DNA of 64,000 nt from assembly GCF_002854065.1 (NCBI RefSeq), contig NZ_CP024147.1; one strand, 5' to 3'. The DNA comes from Escherichia coli (GTDB taxonomy: Bacteria > Pseudomonadota > Gammaproteobacteria > Enterobacterales > Enterobacteriaceae). Positions 20,884 to 64,000 of the stretch are shown here, one piece after another. How positions within the stretch are numbered: the stretch's first letter is position 1; each line of letters begins with the position of its first letter. The position numbers and the translations under genes are program-made. The notes beneath the pieces were generated by a model, which was given only the letters and a program-made list of their open reading frames with translations, ran no database searches and had not been told where the DNA came from.

Positions 20884-22149
20884 TTACTTCAGCATAAAGT
20901 CATACTGAATACTCATTTTCACATCCCAGTAATTCAGGCGATCGCCCAGCACACTGCCATCGCGCTTTTCCCCCCCTTTATCGGCAGCAAGAAAGAAATT
21001 CATCCCTTGTAACGGCCCTTCGCTGACCCGATAGTTCATACCACCTAAGATACCCGCGCCTTCAATCCGCACATCTCGTTTACTGGATTCATAGCCGCGA
21101 GTCACAATCGGTGCAAATGTCAGTGTAAATTGCGGCGTTAAACGATAGTTGACGCCCAATTGCCAGGACTGCATTCCTTCACGGTTACGATAAAGACTTA
21201 ATGAAAAGGGATAGCCAATGTCGGTATCCACCACGGCACCATTCATTGCATGGCGCAAATAACCACCACTGCCAAATACGCTTCCCCACGGCGCATTCCA
21301 GGTCAATTGTCCACTAACCAACGCCGTTTCATTGGGCTGACTGGTATTACGACTTAAACCTTCGAGCTGCGCGTAAAAGCCGAGCAACTCCCCTTTCAAC
21401 GTATAATTCGGGTCGAGCGGTATGCTTTTCTCGAGAATACTTTGTATCTGATTGGAAACATCTTTCTGTACCGATGCCCCCAGAGAATAGCGACTGGTAT
21501 CATCATGCCAACTGGCGGCTAAAAAAGAACGTGCGCGATGTTTATCGTATTTTCCCGTCTGGCTGTTATAAACCCCTTCATCACGAATACCGGTTGTTGA
21601 ATCGGTCCATAAAAATACTCGTGAACGCCACATTCCCCACAGATCAATATTTGGCGTTAACGCCCAATAACCTAATGCTCCTTCAGAAACTGTCGGTAAT
21701 GTACGTTGCGAACTGCCAGCCATTAACGGAATACGATAAGGTAAGCTACCATAACTATAATCCGTCCCGAAGCGACCTAATTTAAGCTGGCTATTTTCAC
21801 TGGGTTTTATTTTTACTGCCCCCAGGGCAAAGCCAAAACTTTTATCACCATCAAGATACCACCGGGTACTCATATCAGCACGAGCACCTAATTTATAAAC
21901 ATAATACGCTCCGCCTTCAACGCCAATAATATTGGAATAATAACCACTATTGAAATCGAGCAATCCTCCCTGTACCCATGCGTAAATATCTCTTCCCGCG
22001 CCAGCACTGGGCTTATCCGCCCTGCGCAATTCGTTTTTCAGTCTGATGCGTAGTCCCGCTTCATCGTCAGCCAGTTGCGCCGCGTAAGCAGAGGTAAGGC
22101 CAGAGGCAGCCGTCAGGCAAATAACGGCCATGGCCACTATTTTTCTCAT
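20884..22149 (-). CDS. uidC: Outer-membrane beta-barrel protein of the glucuronide utilisation operon
   Basis: 421 aa with signal peptide and terminal aromatic residue pattern typical of porins; now separated from uidB/uidA by IS1. Confidence 0.9.
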   Translation of the reverse strand: MRKIVAMAVICLTAASGLTSAYAAQLADDEAGLRIRLKNELRRADKPSAGAGRDIYAWVQGGLLDFNSGYYSNIIGVEGGAYYVYKLGARADMSTRWYLDGDKSFGFALGAVKIKPSENSQLKLGRFGTDYSYGSLPYRIPLMAGSSQRTLPTVSEGALGYWALTPNIDLWGMWRSRVFLWTDSTTGIRDEGVYNSQTGKYDKHRARSFLAASWHDDTSRYSLGASVQKDVSNQIQSILEKSIPLDPNYTLKGELLGFYAQLEGLSRNTSQPNETALVSGQLTWNAPWGSVFGSGGYLRHAMNGAVVDTDIGYPFSLSLYRNREGMQSWQLGVNYRLTPQFTLTFAPIVTRGYESSKRDVRIEGAGILGGMNYRVSEGPLQGMNFFLAADKGGEKRDGSVLGDRLNYWDVKMSIQYDFMLK

Positions 22150-22338: not shown

Positions 22339-22842
22339 TTATTGATAGTGTTTTATGTTCAGATAATGCCCGATGACTTTGTCATGCAGCTCCACCGATT
22401 TTGAGAACGACAGCGACTTCCGTCCCAGCCGTGCCAGGTGCTGCCTCAGATTCAGGTTATGCCGCTCAATTCGCTGCGTATATCGCTTGCTGATTACGTG
22501 CAGCTTTCCCTTCAGGCGGGATTCATACAGCGGCCAGCCATCCGTCATCCATATCACCACGTCAAAGGGTGACAGCAGGCTCATAAGACGCCCCAGCGTC
22601 GCCATAGTGCGTTCACCGAATACGTGCGCAACAACCGTCTTCCGGAGCCTGTCATACGCGTAAAACAGCCAGCGCTGGCGCGATTTAGCCCCGACGTATC
22701 CCCACTGTTCGTCCATTTCCGCGCAGACGATGACGTCACTGCCCGGCTGTATGCGCGAGGTTACCGACTGCGGCCTGAGTTTTTTAAATGGCGGAAAATC
22801 GTGTTGAGGCCAACGCCCATAATGCGGGCGGTTGCCCGGCAT
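22339..22842 (-). CDS. insB: IS1 transposase InsB (expressed as InsAB' fusion by -1 frameshift)
   Basis: 167-aa ORF with the canonical IS1 InsB sequence as I recognise it. Confidence 0.9.
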
Positions 22843-23036
22843 CCAACGCCATTCATGGCCATATCAATGATTTTCTGGTGCGTACCGGGTTGAGAAGCGG
22901 TGTAAGTGAACTGCAGTTGCCATGTTTTACGGCAGTGAGAGCAGAGATAGCGCTGATGTCCGGCAGTGCTTTTGCCGTTACGCACCACCCCGTCAGTAGC
23001 TGAACAGGAGGGACAGCTGATAGAAACAGAAGCCAC
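22761..23036 (-). CDS. insA: IS1 repressor/transposition inhibitor InsA
   Basis: 91 aa with zinc-finger-like CxxC...CxxC N-terminus; overlaps insB across the A6C slippery site. Confidence 0.9.
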
Positions 23037-36433: not shown

Positions 36434-39322
<2,889 letters not shown>

Positions 39323-56203: not shown

Positions 56204-56803
56204 ATGAACAAACACACCGAACATGATACTCGCGAACATCTCCTGGCGACGGGCGAGCAACTTTGCCTGCAACGTGGATTCACCGGGATGGGGCTAAGCG
56301 AATTACTAAAAACCGCTGAAGTGCCGAAAGGGTCCTTCTATCACTACTTTCGCTCTAAAGAGGCGTTTGGCGTTGCCATGCTTGAGCGCCATTATGCCGC
56401 ATATCACCAGCGACTGACTGAGTTGCTGCAATCCGGCGAAGGTAACTACCGCGACCGCATACTGGCTTATTACCAGCAAACACTGAACCAGTTTTGCCAA
56501 CATGGAACCATCAGTGGTTGCCTGACAGTAAAACTCTCTGCCGAAGTGTGCGATCTTTCAGAAGATATGCGTAGCGCGATGGATAAAGGCGCTCGCGGCG
56601 TGATCGCCCTGCTCTCGCAGGCTCTGGAAAATGGCCGTGAGAACCACTGTTTAACCTTTTGTGGCGAACCGCTGCAACAGGCACAAGTGCTTTACGCACT
56701 ATGGCTGGGTGCGAATCTGCAGGCCAAAATTTCGCGCAGTTTCGAGCCGCTGGAAAACGCGCTGGCACATGTAAAAAACATTATTGCGACGCCTGCCGTT
56801 TAG
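56204..56803 (+). CDS. nemR: TetR-family electrophile-sensing repressor
   Basis: 199 aa. Confidence 0.9.
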   Translation: MNKHTEHDTREHLLATGEQLCLQRGFTGMGLSELLKTAEVPKGSFYHYFRSKEAFGVAMLERHYAAYHQRLTELLQSGEGNYRDRILAYYQQTLNQFCQHGTISGCLTVKLSAEVCDLSEDMRSAMDKGARGVIALLSQALENGRENHCLTFCGEPLQQAQVLYALWLGANLQAKISRSFEPLENALAHVKNIIATPAV

Positions 56804-56839
56804 CAGGCATTTTTTATCACCAGACGACCGGGAGCCTTT

Positions 56840-57937
56840 ATGTCATCTGAAAAACTGTATTCCCCACTGAAAGTGGGCGCAATAACTGCGGCAAACCGTA
56901 TTTTTATGGCACCGCTGACGCGTCTGCGCAGTATTGAACCGGGTGACATCCCTACCCCGTTGATGGCGGAATACTATCGCCAACGTGCCAGTGCCGGTTT
57001 GATTATTAGCGAAGCCACGCAAATTTCTGCCCAGGCAAAAGGGTATGCTGGTGCACCTGGCATCCATAGTCCGGAACAAATTGCCGCATGGAAAAAAATT
57101 ACCGCTGGCGTTCATGCTGAAAATGGACATATGGCCGTACAGCTGTGGCACACCGGACGCATTTCTCACGCCAGCCTGCAACCTGGCGGTCAGGCACCGG
57201 TAGCGCCTTCAGCACTTAGCGCGGGAACACGTACTTCTCTGCGCGATGAAAATGGTCAGGCGATCCGTGTTGAAACATCCATGCCGCGTGCGCTTGAACT
57301 GGAAGAGATTCCAGGTATCGTCAATGATTTCCGTCAGGCCATTGCTAACGCGCGTGAAGCCGGTTTTGATCTGGTAGAGCTCCACTCTGCTCACGGTTAT
57401 TTGCTGCATCAGTTCCTTTCCCCTTCTTCAAACCATCGTACCGATCAGTACGGCGGCAGCGTGGAAAATCGCGCACGTTTGGTACTGGAAGTGGTCGATG
57501 CCGGGATTGAAGAATGGGGTGCCGATCGCATTGGCATTCGCGTTTCGCCAATCGGTACTTTCCAGAACACGGATAACGGCCCGAATGAAGAAGCCGATGC
57601 ACTGTATCTGATTGAACAACTGGGTAAACGCGGCATTGCTTATCTGCATATGTCAGAACCAGATTGGGCGGGGGGTGAACCGTATACTGATGCGTTCCGC
57701 GAAAAAGTACGCGCCCGTTTCCACGGTCCGATTATCGGCGCAGGTGCATACACGGTAGAAAAAGCCGAAACGCTGATTGGCAAAGGGTTAATTGATGCGG
57801 TGGCATTTGGTCGTGACTGGATTGCGAACCCGGATCTGGTCGCCCGCTTGCAGCGCAGAGCTGAGCTTAACCCACAACGTGCCGAAAGTTTCTACGGTGG
57901 CGGCGCGGAAGGCTATACCGATTACCCGACGTTGTAA
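56840..57937 (+). CDS. nemA: N-ethylmaleimide reductase (Old Yellow Enzyme family, FMN)
   Basis: 365 aa TIM-barrel flavoprotein. Confidence 0.95.
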
Positions 57938-58017
57938 TCCAACATTGCGAGCGGCGTAAAGCCGCCGCTATACTAAAACAACATTTTGAATCTGTTAGCC
58001 ATTTTGAGGATAAAAAG

Positions 58018-58425
58018 ATGCGTCTTCTTCATACCATGCTGCGCGTTGGCGATTTGCAACGCTCCATCGATTTTTATACCAAAGTTCTGGGCATGAAACT
58101 GCTGCGTACCAGCGAAAACCCGGAATACAAATACTCACTGGCGTTTGTTGGCTACGGCCCGGAAACCGAAGAAGCGGTGATTGAACTGACCTACAACTGG
58201 GGCGTGGATAAATACGAACTCGGCACTGCTTATGGTCACATCGCGCTTAGCGTAGATAATGCCGCTGAAGCGTGCGAAAAAATCCGTCAAAACGGGGGTA
58301 ACGTGACCCGTGAAGCGGGTCCGGTAAAAGGCGGTACTACGGTTATCGCGTTTGTGGAAGATCCGGACGGTTACAAAATTGAGTTAATCGAAGAGAAAGA
58401 CGCCGGTCGCGGTCTGGGCAACTAA
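58018..58425 (+). CDS. gloA: Glyoxalase I (lactoylglutathione lyase)
   Basis: 135 aa beginning [26 protein letters not shown]. Confidence 0.95.
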
Positions 58426-58527
58426 TCTCCTGCCGGGCGTGAACTCCTCGCGCCCGCATCTTTACTGCATCGACAAGTAATATTTGTCATAATGCGCGCT
58501 GCAATTTATCCGTATTAAGAGAATCAG

Positions 58528-59175
58528 ATGTCCGATAACGCTCAACTTACCGGTCTGTGCGACCGTTTTCGTGGTTTTTATCCTGTTGTGATCGATGTTG
58601 AAACAGCCGGATTTAACGCCAAAACCGATGCGCTGCTTGAGATTGCCGCCATCACCCTGAAAATGGATGAACAAGGCTGGCTGATGCCGGACACCACATT
58701 ACATTTCCACGTCGAACCATTTGTCGGCGCAAATTTGCAACCAGAAGCCCTTGCCTTCAACGGCATTGACCCGAACGATCCCGATCGCGGCGCGGTCAGC
58801 GAATACGAGGCGCTGCACGAAATTTTTAAAGTTGTACGTAAAGGTATTAAAGCGAGCGGCTGTAACCGCGCCATTATGGTGGCGCACAACGCCAATTTCG
58901 ATCACAGCTTTATGATGGCCGCCGCAGAACGCGCCTCACTGAAACGTAACCCGTTCCACCCTTTCGCCACTTTTGACACTGCTGCACTGGCCGGGCTGGC
59001 ACTCGGACAAACCGTATTGTCAAAGGCTTGCCAGACCGCTGGCATGGACTTCGACAGCACCCAGGCGCACTCCGCGCTGTACGACACCGAACGCACTGCG
59101 GTGCTGTTTTGTGAAATCGTCAACCGCTGGAAACGTCTGGGAGGCTGGCCGCTACCTGCCGCCGAAGAGGTGTAA
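58528..59175 (+). CDS. rnt: Ribonuclease T (DEDDh 3'-5' exoribonuclease)
   Basis: 215 aa; DEDD catalytic motifs ([14 protein letters not shown]). Confidence 0.95.
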
Positions 59176-59267
59176 TCGAGTCGATGCCTGATGACATGCA
59201 ATGATTCAGGCATCTATAGTGAGGCTATTCCACGCATCATGCATGATATTCACGGGGAATAGCGTTA

Positions 59268-62200
59268 ATGGCAGATAATCCAAACCCTTCATCGCCCCTG
59301 CCGGACGTGTTTTCACCGGCGACCCGCGACTGGTTTCTTCGCGCCTTTAAACAGCCGACCGCTGTCCAGTCGCAAACCTGGCATGTGGCGGCGCGAGGCG
59401 AACATGCGCTGGTGATTGCACCGACCGGCTCCGGGAAAACGCTGGCAGCATTTCTCTACGCCCTCGATCGGCTCTTCCGCGAAGGCGGCGAAGATACCCG
59501 CGAGGCGCATAAGCGTAAAACCTCACGCATTCTCTATATTTCACCGATAAAAGCCCTGGGCACCGACGTTCAGCGCAACTTGCAGATCCCGTTACAGGGT
59601 ATTGCCGATGAACGGCGGCGGCGCGGCGAAACGGAAGTCAATCTTCGCGTGGGGATCCGTACTGGCGATACGCCTGCACAGGAACGCAGCAAACTCACCC
59701 GTAATCCGCCGGATATTCTGATCACCACACCCGAATCACTCTATCTGATGCTGACCTCCCGCGCGCGCGAAACGCTACGCGGCGTCGAAACGGTAATTAT
59801 TGATGAAGTCCACGCGGTAGCGGGCAGTAAACGTGGTGCGCATCTGGCGTTAAGTCTGGAGCGGCTCGATGCGCTGCTCCACACCTCAGCACAGCGAATT
59901 GGCCTTTCTGCCACTGTGCGCTCAGCCAGCGATGTGGCAGCATTTCTTGGCGGCGATCGCCCGGTTACGGTAGTCAACCCGCCCGCAATGCGCCATCCGC
60001 AGATACGGATTGTCGTACCGGTCGCCAATATGGATGATGTCTCATCGGTCGCCAGCGGCACTAGCGAAGACAGCCATGCCGGCCGGGAAGGCTCCATCTG
60101 GCCATATATTGAAACGGGTATCCTTGATGAAGTGTTGCGCCATCGCTCGACCATTGTCTTTACTAATTCGCGGGGGCTGGCGGAAAAACTGACGGCACGA
60201 TTAAATGAGCTTTACTCCGCACGCTTACAGCGTTCCCCGTCTATCGCCGTTGATGCGGCCCATTTCGAGTCGACCTCCGGCGCAACCTCTAACCGTGTAC
60301 AAAGTAGCGACATTTTTATTGCCCGCTCACACCACGGCTCCGTCTCTAAAGAACAACGAGCAATAACCGAACAGGCGCTGAAATCGGGTGAATTACGCTG
60401 CGTGGTCGCAACTTCCAGTCTCGAACTGGGGATTGATATGGGCGCTGTGGATCTGGTGATTCAGGTGGCAACGCCGCTTTCTGTTGCCAGTGGGTTACAA
60501 CGCATTGGACGTGCCGGACACCAGGTAGGTGGTATCTCCAAAGGGCTTTTTTTCCCCCGAACCAGGCGTGACTTAGTCGATTCCGCAGTCATTGTAGAGT
60601 GTATGTTCGCAGGCAGGCTGGAAAACCTGATACCACCGCATAATCCACTCGACGTCCTTGCGCAGCAAACCGTTGCCGCCGCGGCGATGGATGCATTACA
60701 GGTAGACGAATGGTACTCCCGCGTACGCCGTGCCGCACCGTGGAAAGATCTGACAAGACGTGTTTTTGACGCCACGCTGGATATGCTTTCCGGGCGCTAT
60801 CCCTCTGGCGATTTTTCTGCTTTTCGCCCCAAACTGGTCTGGAACAGGGAGACCGGGATATTGACCGCCCGACCTGGCGCTCAGCTGTTGGCGGTTACCA
60901 GCGGCGGCACCATTCCGGATCGTGGCATGTATAGCGTGTTATTACCCGAAGGGGAAGAACAGGCCGGTTCGCGACGGGTGGGTGAACTGGATGAGGAGAT
61001 GGTATATGAGTCACGGGTGAACGATATTATCACTCTCGGCGCAACCTCATGGCGGATCCAGCAAATCACCCGCGATCAGGTGATTGTGACTCCTGCTCCG
61101 GGTCGTTCTGCCCGGCTCCCCTTCTGGCGTGGTGAAGGTAACGGACGTCCGGCTGAATTAGGCGAGATGATCGGCGATTTTCTTCATTTACTGGCGGATG
61201 GAGCGTTCTTTTCCGGGACTATTCCCCCGTGGCTGGCTGAAGAAAATACGATCGCCAATATTCAGGGGTTGATTGACGAGCAGCGCAACGCGACGGGCAT
61301 CGTTCCGGGGAGTCGTCATCTGGTCCTCGAACGGTGCCGTGATGAAATTGGCGACTGGCGTATTATTTTGCACTCTCCCTATGGAAGACGGGTGCATGAA
61401 CCCTGGGCGCTGGCGATTGCCGGGCGAATACATGCGCTATGGGGCGCTGATGCATCTGTGGTCGCCAGTGATGACGGCATTGTTGCGCGCATTCCTGACA
61501 CTGATGGTAAATTGCCCGACGCCGCGATTTTTTTGTTTGAACCAGAAAAGTTGCTGCAAATTGTCCGCGAGGCGGTAGGCAGTTCGGCACTTTTCGCCGC
61601 CCGTTTTCGCGAATGCGCCGCGCGGGCATTATTAATGCCGGGCCGCACGCCGGGCCATCGCACCCCGCTCTGGCAACAACGGCTGCGCGCCAGTCAGTTG
61701 CTGGAAATCGCTCAGGGATATCCGGATTTTCCGGTCATTCTCGAAACCCTACGCGAATGTCTGCAAGATGTTTATGATCTTCCCGCACTGGAACGTTTGA
61801 TGCGTCGCCTGAACGGTGGCGAAATTCAAATATCCGATGTAACGACTACTACGCCCTCGCCTTTCGCCACAAGTTTATTGTTCGGCTATGTCGCGGAATT
61901 TATGTACCAGAGCGACGCCCCGCTGGCAGAGCGCCGGGCATCCGTACTGTCGCTGGACAGCGAGTTACTGCGCAATCTACTCGGACAGGTCGATCCGGGG
62001 GAATTACTCGACCCGCAGGTCATTCGCCAGGTGGAAGAAGAGTTGCAACGACTGGCTCCTGGCAGAAGAGCGAAAGGTGAAGAAGGATTGTTCGACCTGC
62101 TGCGCGAACTGGGGCCAATGACCGTCGAAGACCTGGCGCAACGGCATACAGGCAGCAGTGAAGAGATTGCGTCGTATCTGGAAAATCTTCTTACAGTAAA

Positions 62201-63884
62201 ACGCATCTTCCCGACGATGATTAGCGGACAGGAGCGTCTTGCCTGTATGGATGATGCCGCCAGGCTGCGCGATGCCCTCGGCGTACAACTACCAGAGTCT
62301 CTGCCAGAGATTTATTTGCATAGAGTCAGTTACCCGCTTCGCGACCTCTTTCTGCGCTATCTCCGGGCTCATGCTCTGGTCACGGCTGAACAACTGGCTC
62401 ATGAGTTTAGTCTCGGTATTGCCATTGTCGAAGAGCAGCTTCAGCAACTGCGCGAACAGGGTCTGGTGATGAATCTGCAACAAGACATCTGGGTGAGCGA
62501 TGAAGTATTTCGTCGTCTGCGTTTGCGCTCGCTGCAAGCCGCCAGAGAAGCGACGCGTCCCGTTGCAGCCACGACCTATGCGCGATTGCTGCTGGAACGT
62601 CAGGGCGTATTACCCGCCACCGATGGTAGCCCGGCGCTCTTTGCCTCAACATCGCCAGGCGTTTATGAGGGCGTGGATGGCGTGATGCGGGTGATCGAAC
62701 AGCTTGCCGGAGTCGGTTTACCCGCCTCACTCTGGGAAAGCCAGATCCTGCCTGCCCGCGTACGCGACTATTCGCCAGAAATGCTCGATGAATTACTGGC
62801 AACCGGAGTGGTTATCTGGTCGGGACAAAAAAAGCTGGGTGAAGATGACGGCCTGGTGGCACTGCATCTACAGGAATATGCCGCAGAATCGTTCACTCCC
62901 GCCGAAGCGGATCAGGCGAATCGTTCGGCGCTGCAGCAAGCGATAGTCGCTGTTCTGGCTGACGGAGGAGCCTGGTTTGCACAACAAATCAGCCAACGGA
63001 TACGCGACAAAATCGGCGAATCGGTTGATCCCTCGGCACTGCAAGAGGCGTTATGGGCGCTGGTCTGGCAAGGCGTCATCACCAGCGATATTTGGGCACC
63101 GTTACGCGCCCTCACCCGCAGCAGTTCCAACGCACGCACCTCAACTCGCCGCAGTCACCGGGCTCGTCGTGGGCGTCCTGTCTATGCACAACCCGTCTCG
63201 CCGCGGGTATCTTACAACACACCAAATCTGGCTGGACGCTGGTCGTTATTGCAGGTGGAGCCACTAAACGATACCGAAAGGATGCTGGCGCTGGCGGAAA
63301 ATATGCTCGACCGCTACGGCATCATCAGTCGTCAGGCGGTGATAGCCGAAAATATCCCTGGCGGGTTTCCATCGATGCAAACGCTTTGTCGAAGTATGGA
63401 AGATTCCGGGCGAATTATGCGAGGTCGTTTTGTAGAAGGTCTGGGTGGCGCGCAATTCGCTGAACGTCTGACTATTGACCGCTTGCGCGACCTGTCGACA
63501 CAAGCCGCGCAAACGCGCCACTATACACCAGTGGCGCTCTCCGCCAACGATCCGGCTAATGTGTGGGGAAATCTTCTGCCCTGGCCTGCACATCCGGCAA
63601 CGCTGGTACCAACGCGTCGGGCGGGTGCGCTGGTGGTCGTTTCTGGCGGCAAATTGTTACTCTATCTGGCGCAAGGTGGCAAAAAAATGCTGGTCTGGCA
63701 GGAAAAAGAGGAATTACTCGCCCCAGAGGTTTTCCACGCGCTGACTACCGCACTGCGTCGCGAACCACGGCTGCGCTTTACGCTAACAGAAGTGAATGAT
63801 CTACCGGTCCGGCAAACGCCGATGTTTACGCTGCTGCGTGAGGCGGGATTTTCAAGTTCGCCACAAGGGCTGGATTGGGGATAG
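59268..63884 (+). CDS. lhr: Large SF2 helicase-related protein Lhr (ATP-dependent)
   Basis: 1538 aa; Walker A APTGSGKT, DEVH box, helicase motif VI and a long C-terminal extension. Confidence 0.95.
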   Translation: MADNPNPSSPLPDVFSPATRDWFLRAFKQPTAVQSQTWHVAARGEHALVIAPTGSGKTLAAFLYALDRLFREGGEDTREAHKRKTSRILYISPIKALGTDVQRNLQIPLQGIADERRRRGETEVNLRVGIRTGDTPAQERSKLTRNPPDILITTPESLYLMLTSRARETLRGVETVIIDEVHAVAGSKRGAHLALSLERLDALLHTSAQRIGLSATVRSASDVAAFLGGDRPVTVVNPPAMRHPQIRIVVPVANMDDVSSVASGTSEDSHAGREGSIWPYIETGILDEVLRHRSTIVFTNSRGLAEKLTARLNELYSARLQRSPSIAVDAAHFESTSGATSNRVQSSDIFIARSHHGSVSKEQRAITEQALKSGELRCVVATSSLELGIDMGAVDLVIQVATPLSVASGLQRIGRAGHQVGGISKGLFFPRTRRDLVDSAVIVECMFAGRLENLIPPHNPLDVLAQQTVAAAAMDALQVDEWYSRVRRAAPWKDLTRRVFDATLDMLSGRYPSGDFSAFRPKLVWNRETGILTARPGAQLLAVTSGGTIPDRGMYSVLLPEGEEQAGSRRVGELDEEMVYESRVNDIITLGATSWRIQQITRDQVIVTPAPGRSARLPFWRGEGNGRPAELGEMIGDFLHLLADGAFFSGTIPPWLAEENTIANIQGLIDEQRNATGIVPGSRHLVLERCRDEIGDWRIILHSPYGRRVHEPWALAIAGRIHALWGADASVVASDDGIVARIPDTDGKLPDAAIFLFEPEKLLQIVREAVGSSALFAARFRECAARALLMPGRTPGHRTPLWQQRLRASQLLEIAQGYPDFPVILETLRECLQDVYDLPALERLMRRLNGGEIQISDVTTTTPSPFATSLLFGYVAEFMYQSDAPLAERRASVLSLDSELLRNLLGQVDPGELLDPQVIRQVEEELQRLAPGRRAKGEEGLFDLLRELGPMTVEDLAQRHTGSSEEIASYLENLLTVKRIFPTMISGQERLACMDDAARLRDALGVQLPESLPEIYLHRVSYPLRDLFLRYLRAHALVTAEQLAHEFSLGIAIVEEQLQQLREQGLVMNLQQDIWVSDEVFRRLRLRSLQAAREATRPVAATTYARLLLERQGVLPATDGSPALFASTSPGVYEGVDGVMRVIEQLAGVGLPASLWESQILPARVRDYSPEMLDELLATGVVIWSGQKKLGEDDGLVALHLQEYAAESFTPAEADQANRSALQQAIVAVLADGGAWFAQQISQRIRDKIGESVDPSALQEALWALVWQGVITSDIWAPLRALTRSSSNARTSTRRSHRARRGRPVYAQPVSPRVSYNTPNLAGRWSLLQVEPLNDTERMLALAENMLDRYGIISRQAVIAENIPGGFPSMQTLCRSMEDSGRIMRGRFVEGLGGAQFAERLTIDRLRDLSTQAAQTRHYTPVALSANDPANVWGNLLPWPAHPATLVPTRRAGALVVVSGGKLLLYLAQGGKKMLVWQEKEELLAPEVFHALTTALRREPRLRFTLTEVNDLPVRQTPMFTLLREAGFSSSPQGLDWG

Positions 63885-63892
63885 AGAAAGGA

Positions 63893-63920
63893 CTGACGGA
63901 TGCCCGTTCGCATCCGTCAG
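63893..63920. terminator. Bidirectional terminator hairpin between convergent lhr and grxD
   Basis: 11-bp perfect stem CTGACGGATGC / GCATCCGTCAG with loop CCGTTC; T-rich flank on the minus strand. Confidence 0.5.
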
Positions 63921-63934
63921 TATTGCAGGACGGA

Positions 63935-64000
63935 TTATTCCGCGTCCGGCTCTTCAGACTTGTATTTAGCGGCAGTTTCTTTGATCAGCTGCTGCAGTTC
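63935..64000 (-). CDS. grxD: Monothiol glutaredoxin Grx4, 3' end only (start lies beyond window)
   Basis: Minus-strand translation ends ELQQLIKETAAKYKSEEPDAE then stop, consistent with the GrxD C-terminus and its position after lhr. Confidence 0.75.
   Translation of the reverse strand, partial: ELQQLIKETAAKYKSEEPDAE

Follow-up and report, generated by a model that had tools for sequence, protein, structure and literature searches.

Assignment of an Escherichia coli locus to the rnt-lhr pair, encoding RNase T and the two-part DNA-repair enzyme Lhr

The locus described here is, with a probability of about 90%, the chromosomal rnt-lhr pair of E. coli, which encodes RNase T and the two-part DNA-repair enzyme Lhr. 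In the window (the whole stretch of 64,000 nucleotides of E. coli DNA that was analysed), the open reading frame list places rnt directly upstream of lhr on the same strand, and the two genes are separated by a gap of 92 bp (59176..59267). The original prediction had given these identities, the length of Lhr and the size of the gap; its coordinates proved to be exact, and the RefSeq labels on the identical stretch of E. coli CUWW06 are also rnt and lhr. At the DNA level, the rnt-lhr stretch is 100% identical to that of CUWW06 and 98.2% identical to that of K-12. The neighbours at the locus are gloA, rnt and grxD, and the gene order, gloA-rnt-lhr-grxD, is as in K-12. The rnt product scored 382.9 bits against the TIGR01298 RNaseT equivalog model, above its cutoff of 246.2. 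The gene pair, the enzyme activities of Lhr, the fold of its C-terminal domain (CTD) and the co-transcription of the two genes have all been published previously, so that the locus matters little as a finding of the scan, and lhr had been filed correctly as a known gene. The present analysis supplies the gene identity, the domain layout, the finding that key residues are intact, and the tail fold; the enzymatic activities and deletion phenotypes come from papers on the K-12 protein. The coding features are as follows.

58528..59175, plus strand: rnt, ribonuclease T, a DEDDh 3'-5' exonuclease of 215 aa (ORF, TIGR01298, Pfam RNase_T, RefSeq annotation of CUWW06)
59268..63884, plus strand: lhr, large helicase-related protein, 1538 aa plus stop (ORF, NF007284)
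59268..61898, plus strand: Lhr-Core, aa 1-877, with RecA1, RecA2, winged helix and domain 4 (Pfam, PDB 5V9X, boundary from PMC8053096)
59418..59441, plus strand: Walker A or motif I, APTGSGKT, aa 51-58 (sequence)
59802..59813, plus strand: motif II, DEVH, aa 179-182 (sequence)
61125..61127, plus strand: codon of Trp620 (sequence; W at residue 620)
61899..63881, plus strand: Lhr-CTD, aa 878-1538, tandem winged helices and a beta-barrel in an AlkZ/YcaQ-like fold (Pfam, AlphaFold, Foldseek)
63873..63875, plus strand: codon GAT of Asp1536, in the C-terminus ...GLDWG (sequence; reported as essential for the uracil-DNA glycosylase, PMC10953399)

The Lhr product matched the NF007284 equivalog model at 3395.3 bits (cutoff 1496), with residues 1-1538 aligned to profile positions 1-1538. 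It differs from K-12 Lhr (b1653, 1538 aa) by 23 substitutions in 1538 residues (98.5% identity), none of which falls in motif I, motif II, Trp620 or Asp1536. Within the core, the boundary of which (aa 877) follows PMC8053096, Pfam identified DEAD at 31-218 and Helicase_C at 350-417, together with two accessory domains, the Lhr winged helix (WH_Lhr, PF19306, 446-616, E 9.4e-48) and domain 4 (DEAD_assoc, PF08494, 679-867, E 2.4e-62). PDB entry 5V9X matched residues 8-876 with an E value of 4.8e-293. Both the Walker A sequence and the DEVH box that had been noticed earlier are present, the latter including D179 and E180, the residues mutated in the ATPase-dead enzyme (PMC8053096). PMC8053096 assigns to Trp620 of EcoLhr the coupling of ATP hydrolysis with translocation. 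In its NF007284 match, its SF2 motifs, the accessory domains of its core and its CTD, Lhr fits the full-length bacterial class bLhr-HTH.

Purified K-12 Lhr is an ATPase, a 3'-to-5' ssDNA translocase and a helicase that prefers RNA:DNA, and it forms a homo-oligomer (PMC8053096). The translocase and helicase activity of the window allele is presumed by carrying these properties over from the K-12 protein, from which it has 23 differences outside the motifs. Lhr-Core would thus act as an ATP-driven motor that moves 3' to 5' on ssDNA and strips the annealed strand, preferentially from RNA:DNA hybrids. [quoted passage not shown] The description of Lhr as a protein of unclear cellular role in the original prediction is therefore out of date with respect to its biochemistry, which is covered by PMC8053096 and PMC10953399, but it holds in that the physiological pathway is only partly defined.

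The C-terminal extension had been put forward as a region in need of annotation, a view that is out of date given the existence of dedicated Pfam models and of the 7LHL structure. The profile and structure search proposed for this part was run, and it recovered these models and 7LHL as well as AlkX/YcaQ and AlkZ. Pfam placed WH2_Lhr at 912-1016, WH3_Lhr at 1130-1206 and WH4_Lhr at 1334-1416. When the AlphaFold model of the CTD (pLDDT 88.1) was used as a Foldseek query, it matched 7LHL (E 1e-36, TM 0.55-0.62), 9ZD6 (E 7.3e-7) and 5UUJ (E 5.5e-5). The 7LHL entry, a cryo-EM structure of a full-length homologue, also matched Lhr residues 8-1479 by sequence and was the sole match of the CTD profile among PDB sequences. 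As modelled, the CTD fold is one of tandem winged helices and a beta-barrel as in 7LHL, and it resembles AlkX/YcaQ and AlkZ. The CTD would oligomerise the protein and, in E. coli, would carry the Asp1536-dependent uracil-DNA glycosylase.

In 48 of 56 aligned homologues, among them the M. smegmatis Lhr of known structure, Arg stands at the position of Asp1536, and in other proteobacterial Lhr proteins the residue varies among D, R, G, T, N, S, A, Y and Q. Asp1536 is thus poorly conserved across the Lhr family. A stricter statement, that Asp1536 is confined to Escherichia, held in the first alignment; wider sampling showed Asp in a few other proteobacterial lineages, and the claim was restated accordingly. 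Because the residue is mostly Arg or variable, the tail is unlikely to have uracil excision as its conserved function. The lack of conservation of the published catalytic Asp also restricts the extension of the uracil-glycosylase model to mycobacterial Lhr.

The following features lie between the two genes and downstream of lhr.

59183..59214, plus strand: hairpin 1, a perfect 9-bp stem with a 14-nt loop, 8 nt past the rnt stop
59191..59220, plus strand: promoter-like site ATGACA-18-TATAGT, overlapping hairpin 1 (consensus match only)
59224..59263, plus strand: hairpin 2, arms GCTATTCCACG / CGGGGAATAGC (11-nt arms, 91% complementary)
63892..63921, no strand assigned: 12-bp GC-rich hairpin between the convergent lhr and grxD genes (-22.0 kcal/mol)

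Hairpin 1, which the original prediction had reported as a 9-bp-stem hairpin, is present with a perfect stem. Its arms are GATGCCTGA (59183-59191) and TCAGGCATC (59206-59214), five of the nine stem pairs are GC, and on its own it folds at -13.2 kcal/mol. Shuffling of a 64-kb window gives an expectation of about 4 perfect hairpins whose stem reaches 9 bp or more and whose loop spans 3-20 nt; the actual window holds about 20, many of them at or near gene ends. The calculated expectation for a 92-bp gap is about 0.006, and hairpin 1 is therefore unlikely to have arisen locally by chance. The whole 92-bp intergenic sequence folded no better than its shuffles (z = -0.91). Two other identities for hairpin 1 were considered and rejected. 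It is not a REP-type or other repeat, since 5425 of 5426 complete E. coli genomes carry the intergenic region as a single copy and the hairpin occurs once in the window; nor is it a LexA box, because its CTG...CAG spacing is 16 nt and LexA needs 10. A search for known RNA families in 57900-64000 returned none at E <= 1.

One possible hypothesis is that hairpin 1 ends the rnt transcript, either by termination or as a stabiliser of the 3' end, and that lhr is transcribed mostly from its own ATGACA-18-TATAGT promoter, so that rnt and lhr are separate units. The position of a stable hairpin immediately past the rnt stop agrees with this proposal, as does the finding that the stems are invariant in nine Escherichia sequences, with the observed changes lying in the loop or beside the stem. 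The promoter-like site has 10 of 12 consensus matches, the best of 9 such sites in the 6.1-kb region. However, 3.5 sites are expected from shuffles, and single matches consequently carry little weight. Hairpin 1 is followed by TATAGTGAGG, without a T-run, and for this reason is not terminator-like; it fell outside the intrinsic-terminator criteria of the terminator scan, which did not report it. Furthermore, E. fergusonii has kept neither the sequence of hairpin 1 nor the promoter-like hexamers, and it has a different 9-bp hairpin at the same place. PMC8301817, citing Reuven 1995, also states that rnt and lhr are co-transcribed. We consider separate units improbable, although the promoter-like site, as a consensus match, would leave room for an lhr-specific promoter.

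Instead, lhr may be transcribed mainly by read-through from rnt. Translation may then be held low by hairpin 2, which would pair the lhr ribosome-binding site: its 3' arm includes the likely Shine-Dalgarno sequence GGGGAA (59254-59259), and the hairpin appears in both the minimum free energy and the consensus folds (-14.6 kcal/mol for 59220-59267). E. fergusonii retains hairpin 2 with one A-U to G-C double change. A covariation test of the intergenic hairpins in E. coli and E. albertii gave no informative changes, and the basis for the putative ribosome-binding-site hairpin is that one compensatory pair from one divergent genome, E. fergusonii. The hairpin at 63892..63921 is probably a terminator shared by lhr and grxD.

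Among the genomes examined, lhr was found between rnt and grxD only in three Escherichia species. In the Salmonella, Cronobacter and Mixta genomes examined, rnt directly faces grxD without lhr, and a terminator composed of an A-run, a GC hairpin and a T-run directly follows rnt. In Escherichia, a hairpin without a U-run would have replaced this canonical bidirectional terminator found after rnt in other enterics.

Alternatively, the adjacency of rnt and lhr might reflect a functional partnership, a repair or R-loop module in which Lhr unwinds RNA:DNA or structured DNA and RNase T trims 3' ends. The co-transcription noted above (PMC8301817) and the preference of Lhr for RNA:DNA hybrids (PMC8053096) would suit such a module; RNase T is implicated in the processing of DNA 3' ends, and nucleases lie next to other Lhr types (PMC7437997). 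Yet among 83 Lhr-related loci examined, rnt adjoins lhr only in those from Escherichia. The Lhr relatives of Rosenbergiella, Pantoea, actinobacteria and metagenomes have other neighbours, and the facing of rnt and grxD in the other enteric genomes likewise speaks against the idea. PMC8301817 found this Lhr class to have neither a conserved gene neighbourhood nor any protein interaction on record, and B2-type strains have kept rnt and lost lhr. A partnership is, in our judgement, quite improbable; the rnt-lhr linkage, which papers cite as a functional clue, did not extend beyond Escherichia in the loci examined.

An identical deletion of 4388 bp in lhr is carried by 1040 of the 5426 complete E. 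coli genomes, leaving 19% without lhr. Its ends lie in a 10-nt microhomology.

59369..59378, plus strand: GTCGCAAACC, 5' copy of the microhomology at the ends of the lhr deletion
63757..63766, plus strand: GTCGCGAACC, 3' copy of the microhomology; the 4388 bp between the copies are removed

A search of the available literature found nothing on this deletion. The absence of lhr from 19% of complete E. coli genomes shows that natural strains can do without it, and the lhr-null strains, a large group that includes Nissle 1917, could serve in comparisons with lhr+ strains of mutation spectra or stress tolerance. The dN/dS of lhr is 0.045 against E. albertii and 0.11 against K-12, which indicates purifying selection. 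On these values, the greater divergence of lhr relative to its flanks was not taken to indicate foreign origin or decay. The dS of lhr is about two-fold above that of the flanks, which fits a weakly expressed gene.

Among 56 genes, lhr has the highest GC and the lowest FYMINK content, and its GC3 is ordinary. A genome scan for relatives with E. coli-derived peptide patterns found, among the matches listed, at least 4 enteric and at least 76 actinobacterial loci. In a distance tree, the enteric Lhr proteins lie beside the actinobacterial sequences, not inside them. A search with the C-terminal part found Stenotrophomonas, Ralstonia and other proteobacterial Lhr proteins about 50% identical over that C-terminal stretch and sharing a GLxW[E/Y]G ending. 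An actinobacterial origin of E. coli lhr, suggested by the scan counts and by the GC and FYMINK values, was considered and dropped in view of the E. coli-derived patterns behind those counts, the tree, the proteobacterial relatives and the ordinary GC3.

A further alternative makes Lhr a stand-alone helicase of anti-phage defence, with DpdJ, BrxHI and SngC as its relatives, and not a housekeeping repair enzyme. PADLOC gave matches over the helicase core (DpdJ 566, BrxHI 256 and SngC 237 bits), and the accessory-like spread of lhr, which 19% of E. coli lack and which does not occupy this site in other enterics, could be read in the same way. These matches are, however, confined to residues 14-632 of the core, and the NCBIfam DpdJ model NF041067 scored 75.3 bits against a cutoff of 800. 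The neighbours are gloA, rnt and grxD, with no dpd, BREX or other defence genes in the vicinity, and the published phenotypes are those of DNA damage (PMC10953399). A defence role is hardly credible on these grounds.

Our tentative reading of the locus, offered as one possibility, is that in Escherichia lhr sits between the convergent rnt and grxD genes, where the other enterics examined carry a bidirectional terminator, and came under the rnt promoter by position, not partnership. The hairpin at its ribosome-binding site would throttle output, and the gene would now be in the course of being lost in nature through the 4388-bp microhomology deletion (about one-fifth of complete genomes). The Asp1536-dependent glycosylase might be a lineage-restricted addition to a tail with another conserved job, such as oligomerisation or crosslink handling.

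Among known systems, K-12 Lhr (b1653; Reuven 1995, Warren 2021, Buckley 2023) has the same length, the same locus and all tested catalytic residues, and the window protein differs from it by allelic substitutions only. DpdJ, BrxHI and SngC share the Lhr-like helicase core, but their C-terminal parts differ and their multi-gene defence context is obligatory, whereas it is absent at E. coli lhr. The same core (RecA1, RecA2, winged helix and domain 4) is found in the Lhr-Core proteins with an MPE nuclease, such as that of Pseudomonas putida, and in archaeal aLhr2; these proteins lack the 660-aa CTD and have a conserved MPE neighbour, and E. coli Lhr scored 577 bits against NF010338 and 429 bits against TIGR04121, below the cutoff in each case. 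M. smegmatis Lhr (5V9X for the core, 7LHL for the full length and CTD) has the same two-part architecture as E. coli Lhr, and actinobacterial and E. coli Lhr are about 50% identical over their full length. In contrast to E. coli, where the operon partner is rnt, M. smegmatis lhr is partnered by nei2; its product ends in ...GLRLR, with Arg in place of Asp1536, and no glycosylase activity has been found for it. The documented role of the M. smegmatis protein is interstrand-crosslink repair, which is tetramer-dependent. AlkZ and YcaQ (AlkX; HTH_42; 5UUJ, 9ZD6) are interstrand-crosslink DNA glycosylases, and three winged helices with a beta-barrel are, in the modelled structure, common to them and to Lhr-CTD. 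Foldseek aligned Lhr-CTD with 9ZD6 and 5UUJ at a target-normalised TM of 0.58-0.60 and a probability of 1.00, with 12-14% sequence identity. PF06224 was not among the Pfam matches of Lhr at E <= 0.01, there was no profile match to AlkZ/YcaQ, and their QxQ/QxD catalytic motif is reported to be absent from Lhr-CTD (PMC10953399, PMC8053096). Unlike AlkZ and YcaQ, Lhr-CTD forms one polypeptide with a helicase and oligomerises.

The rnt-lhr locus is a known gene pair with published experimental characterisation, and the original prediction described it accurately: both open reading frames, the 92-bp gap between them, the APTGSGKT and DEVH motifs of Lhr (residues 51–58 and 179–182) and the perfect 9-bp stem in the gap were each borne out.

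58528–59175, + strand, rnt, encoding RNase T (215 aa)
59268–63884, + strand, lhr (1538 aa)

The segment from 58400 to 64000 is 100% identical to that of E. coli CUWW06 and 98.2% identical to that of K-12 MG1655, and RefSeq calls gloA, rnt, lhr and the convergent grxD within it. RNase T scored 382.9 bits against TIGR01298 (cutoff 246.2), and Lhr matched the NCBIfam equivalog NF007284 end to end (3395 bits). The observations on the spacer, synteny, natural loss and Asp1536 are modest, testable additions.

E. coli Lhr in purified form hydrolyses ATP, translocates 3′ to 5′ along single-stranded DNA and, as a helicase, prefers RNA:DNA hybrids; its motor comprises residues 1–877, and the full-length protein is a homo-oligomer (PMC8053096). 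The same source describes Trp620 as coupling hydrolysis to movement. Uracil is excised from DNA by Lhr and also by its isolated C-terminal domain (CTD, residues 878–1538), the D1536A substitution abolishes excision with DNA binding unaffected, and deletion of lhr leads to H2O2 sensitivity, AZT sensitivity being known from earlier work (PMC10953399). Mycobacteria need Lhr to withstand mitomycin C and cisplatin, a role for which the motor, the CTD and tetramer formation are all required; glycosylase activity was not found in that protein (PMC9841417). Co-transcription of rnt and lhr is stated, with Reuven 1995 as the source, in PMC8301817. Between the Lhr encoded in the window and that of K-12 there are 23 amino-acid differences; Trp620, D179/E180 and Asp1536 are not among them and are all intact. 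Given the published work and these intact residues, the two checks that had been proposed, annotation of the C-terminal region and a co-transcription test, have effectively been done already.

Hairpin 1, the stem noted in the gap, is an inverted repeat of GATGCCTGA (59183–59191) and TCAGGCATC (59206–59214) with a 14-nt loop and a folding energy of −13.2 kcal/mol. About four hairpins of this kind are expected per shuffled 64-kb window, and by our own calculation one would be unlikely to fall by chance in a given 92-bp gap (about 0.006); the window holds about 20, many of them at or close to gene ends. One could envision that an lhr promoter, together with termination at hairpin 1, contributes in part to lhr expression. 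A promoter-like ATGACA-18-TATAGT (59191–59220) does overlap hairpin 1, and is the best of nine such matches in the region, where 3.5 are expected. It is a match to consensus only, and the hairpin, followed by TATAGTGAGG, was not terminator-like in a terminator scan. We think that such a contribution is unlikely. No Rfam family matched the rnt-lhr region, and the whole spacer, which is single-copy and found in 5425 of 5426 complete E. coli genomes, folds no better than its shuffles (z = −0.91). The stems of hairpin 1 are unchanged among nine Escherichia sequences, with a variable loop, and covariation is therefore uninformative for it.

The second hairpin (59224–59263; GCTATTCC paired with GGAATAGC) is predicted to bury the probable Shine-Dalgarno sequence GGGGAA, 8 nt upstream of the lhr ATG. 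In a comparison genome assigned to E. fergusonii on the basis of its NemA protein, a different 9-bp hairpin takes the place of hairpin 1 and the spacer is unalignable apart from hairpin 2, which is retained as CTGTTCC/GGAACAG with a double change from A-U to G-C. This single compensatory pair in one genome hints that hairpin 2, and not hairpin 1, may be the conserved element of the spacer. In E. coli CFSAN004176 (comparison locus L087, 301–377), hairpin 2 has lost its 5′ arm to a 15-nt spacer deletion, and the annotation lists lhr as a truncated pseudogene.

Among the genomes examined, lhr lies between rnt and grxD only in three Escherichia species, E. coli, E. albertii and E. fergusonii. In those of Salmonella enterica, Cronobacter dublinensis and Mixta gaviniae, lhr is absent and convergent grxD comes immediately after rnt, the two being separated by spacers of 68–79 bp that carry a canonical bidirectional terminator (A-run, GC-hairpin, T-run). 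These spacers were compared with window positions 59176–59267 and 63885–63934.

Comparison locus L084, 4658–4725, rnt-grxD spacer
Comparison locus L085, 4670–4737, rnt-grxD spacer
Comparison locus L086, 4682–4760, rnt-grxD spacer

Either lhr was gained at the rnt-grxD junction by an Escherichia ancestor, or it was lost several times elsewhere. The nearest Lhr relatives outside Escherichia among the matches listed (Rosenbergiella, Pantoea, a metagenomic gammaproteobacterium at 69% identity, and actinobacteria) have no rnt nearby. On either history, the pairing was seen only in Escherichia among the loci examined, and it is therefore a weaker functional clue; a dedicated RNase T-Lhr module, disfavoured by this restricted synteny, is quite improbable. 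A conserved gene neighbourhood was not found for the E. coli-type Lhr class (PMC8301817). Comparison of E. fergusonii CP031282 (locus L093) with window 56204–63884 revealed a sharp divergence step, nemR, nemA and gloA being 95–98% identical to E. coli and rnt, lhr, grxD, mepH and sodB 68–88%; many genes of this assembly are split, and the step could reflect either errors or a recombination boundary.

The lhr gene is cut to about 230 bp in 1040 of the 5426 complete E. coli genomes. All 1040 carry an identical 4388-bp deletion (window equivalent 59379–63766), which also shifts the frame. Its ends, GTCGCAAACC (59369–59378) and GTCGCGAACC (63757–63766), are 10-nt near-repeats, GTCGC[A/G]AACC, and deletion between them caused the reduction. 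The carriers include Nissle 1917, a phylogroup B2 strain. A literature search of limited coverage found no paper on this deletion. In the E. albertii NBRC 107761 type-strain assembly (comparison locus L005, 2541–7148), a single in-frame TGA replaces the TGG of lhr codon 595, pointing either to recent pseudogene formation or to an error of assembly. With dN/dS of 0.045 against E. albertii (for the remainder of the gene) and 0.11 against K-12, intact lhr is under purifying selection; its synonymous sites have diverged about twice as much as those of the flanking genes. GC content (56.9%; mean, 51.4%) and the Arg/(Arg+Lys) ratio are higher in lhr than in any other of the window's 56 genes, and FYMINK content is lower; its GC3 is ordinary.

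Elsewhere in the window, an IS1 copy (22339–23036) lies between intact uidC (20884–22149) and uidB, an arrangement that just 37 of 5426 genomes share at a query coverage of at least 80%. CUWW06, near-identical in other respects, has lost 667 bp adjoining IS1, which truncates its uidC. BLAST self-matches in the rsxC coding region (38650–39275) revealed tandem repeats about 88–92% identical, offset by about 96 bp.

Asp1536 (codon 63873–63875) had been picked from inspection of a model, and the sole sequence alignment in that study was with AlkZ (PMC10953399). In our alignment of 56 C-terminal domains, the two E. coli sequences are the only ones with Asp at this position, 48 having Arg; the M. 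smegmatis terminus reads ...TPRGLRLR, with Arg at the equivalent position. A wider C-terminal search also found Asp in E. fergusonii, the metagenomic relative (69% identity) and a few proteins about 53% identical. The residue is Gly or Asn in Stenotrophomonas, Thr in Ralstonia, and Ser, Ala, Tyr, Arg or Gln in other proteobacterial Lhr sequences. Because Asp1536 is variable among Lhr homologues, across which PMC10953399 did not compare it, the uracil-glycosylase mechanism cannot be generalised from this residue to the Lhr family.

Pfam placed seven domains on Lhr.

Lhr 31–218, DEAD
Lhr 350–417, Helicase_C
Lhr 446–616, WH_Lhr
Lhr 679–867, DEAD_assoc
Lhr 912–1016, WH2_Lhr
Lhr 1130–1206, WH3_Lhr
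Lhr 1334–1416, WH4_Lhr

The last three mean that curated models cover what had been described as a long C-terminal extension. Residues 8–1479 match 7LHL, the structure of full-length M. smegmatis Lhr, and residues 8–876 match the core structure 5V9X. Residues 14–632 (window 59268–61165) also score strongly against the defence-helicase models DpdJ (566 bits), BrxHI (256) and SngC (237). That Lhr is itself a defence helicase is nevertheless highly improbable, since the likeness is confined to the core and no partner defence genes lie nearby.

In mycobacterial Lhr, the CTD is tetrameric, consists of five winged-helix modules and a β-barrel, and is AlkZ-like (PMC8053096). With an AlphaFold model of the E. 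coli CTD (mean pLDDT 88.1, pTM 0.76), Foldseek against the PDB returned 7LHL (E = 1e-36), DNA-bound AlkX/YcaQ (9ZD6; E = 7.3e-7) and AlkZ (5UUJ; E = 5.5e-5), in that order, and no further match of similar coverage. The proposed profile and structure search of the C-terminal region thus yielded winged-helix domains and folds that agree with the papers. The sequence profile built from the 56 domains matched 7LHL alone and did not detect AlkZ. Because Foldseek finds AlkZ and the profile finds only 7LHL, detectable sequence likeness between the two proteins is absent, and the kinship of the modelled CTD with AlkZ lies at the level of the fold that they have in common.
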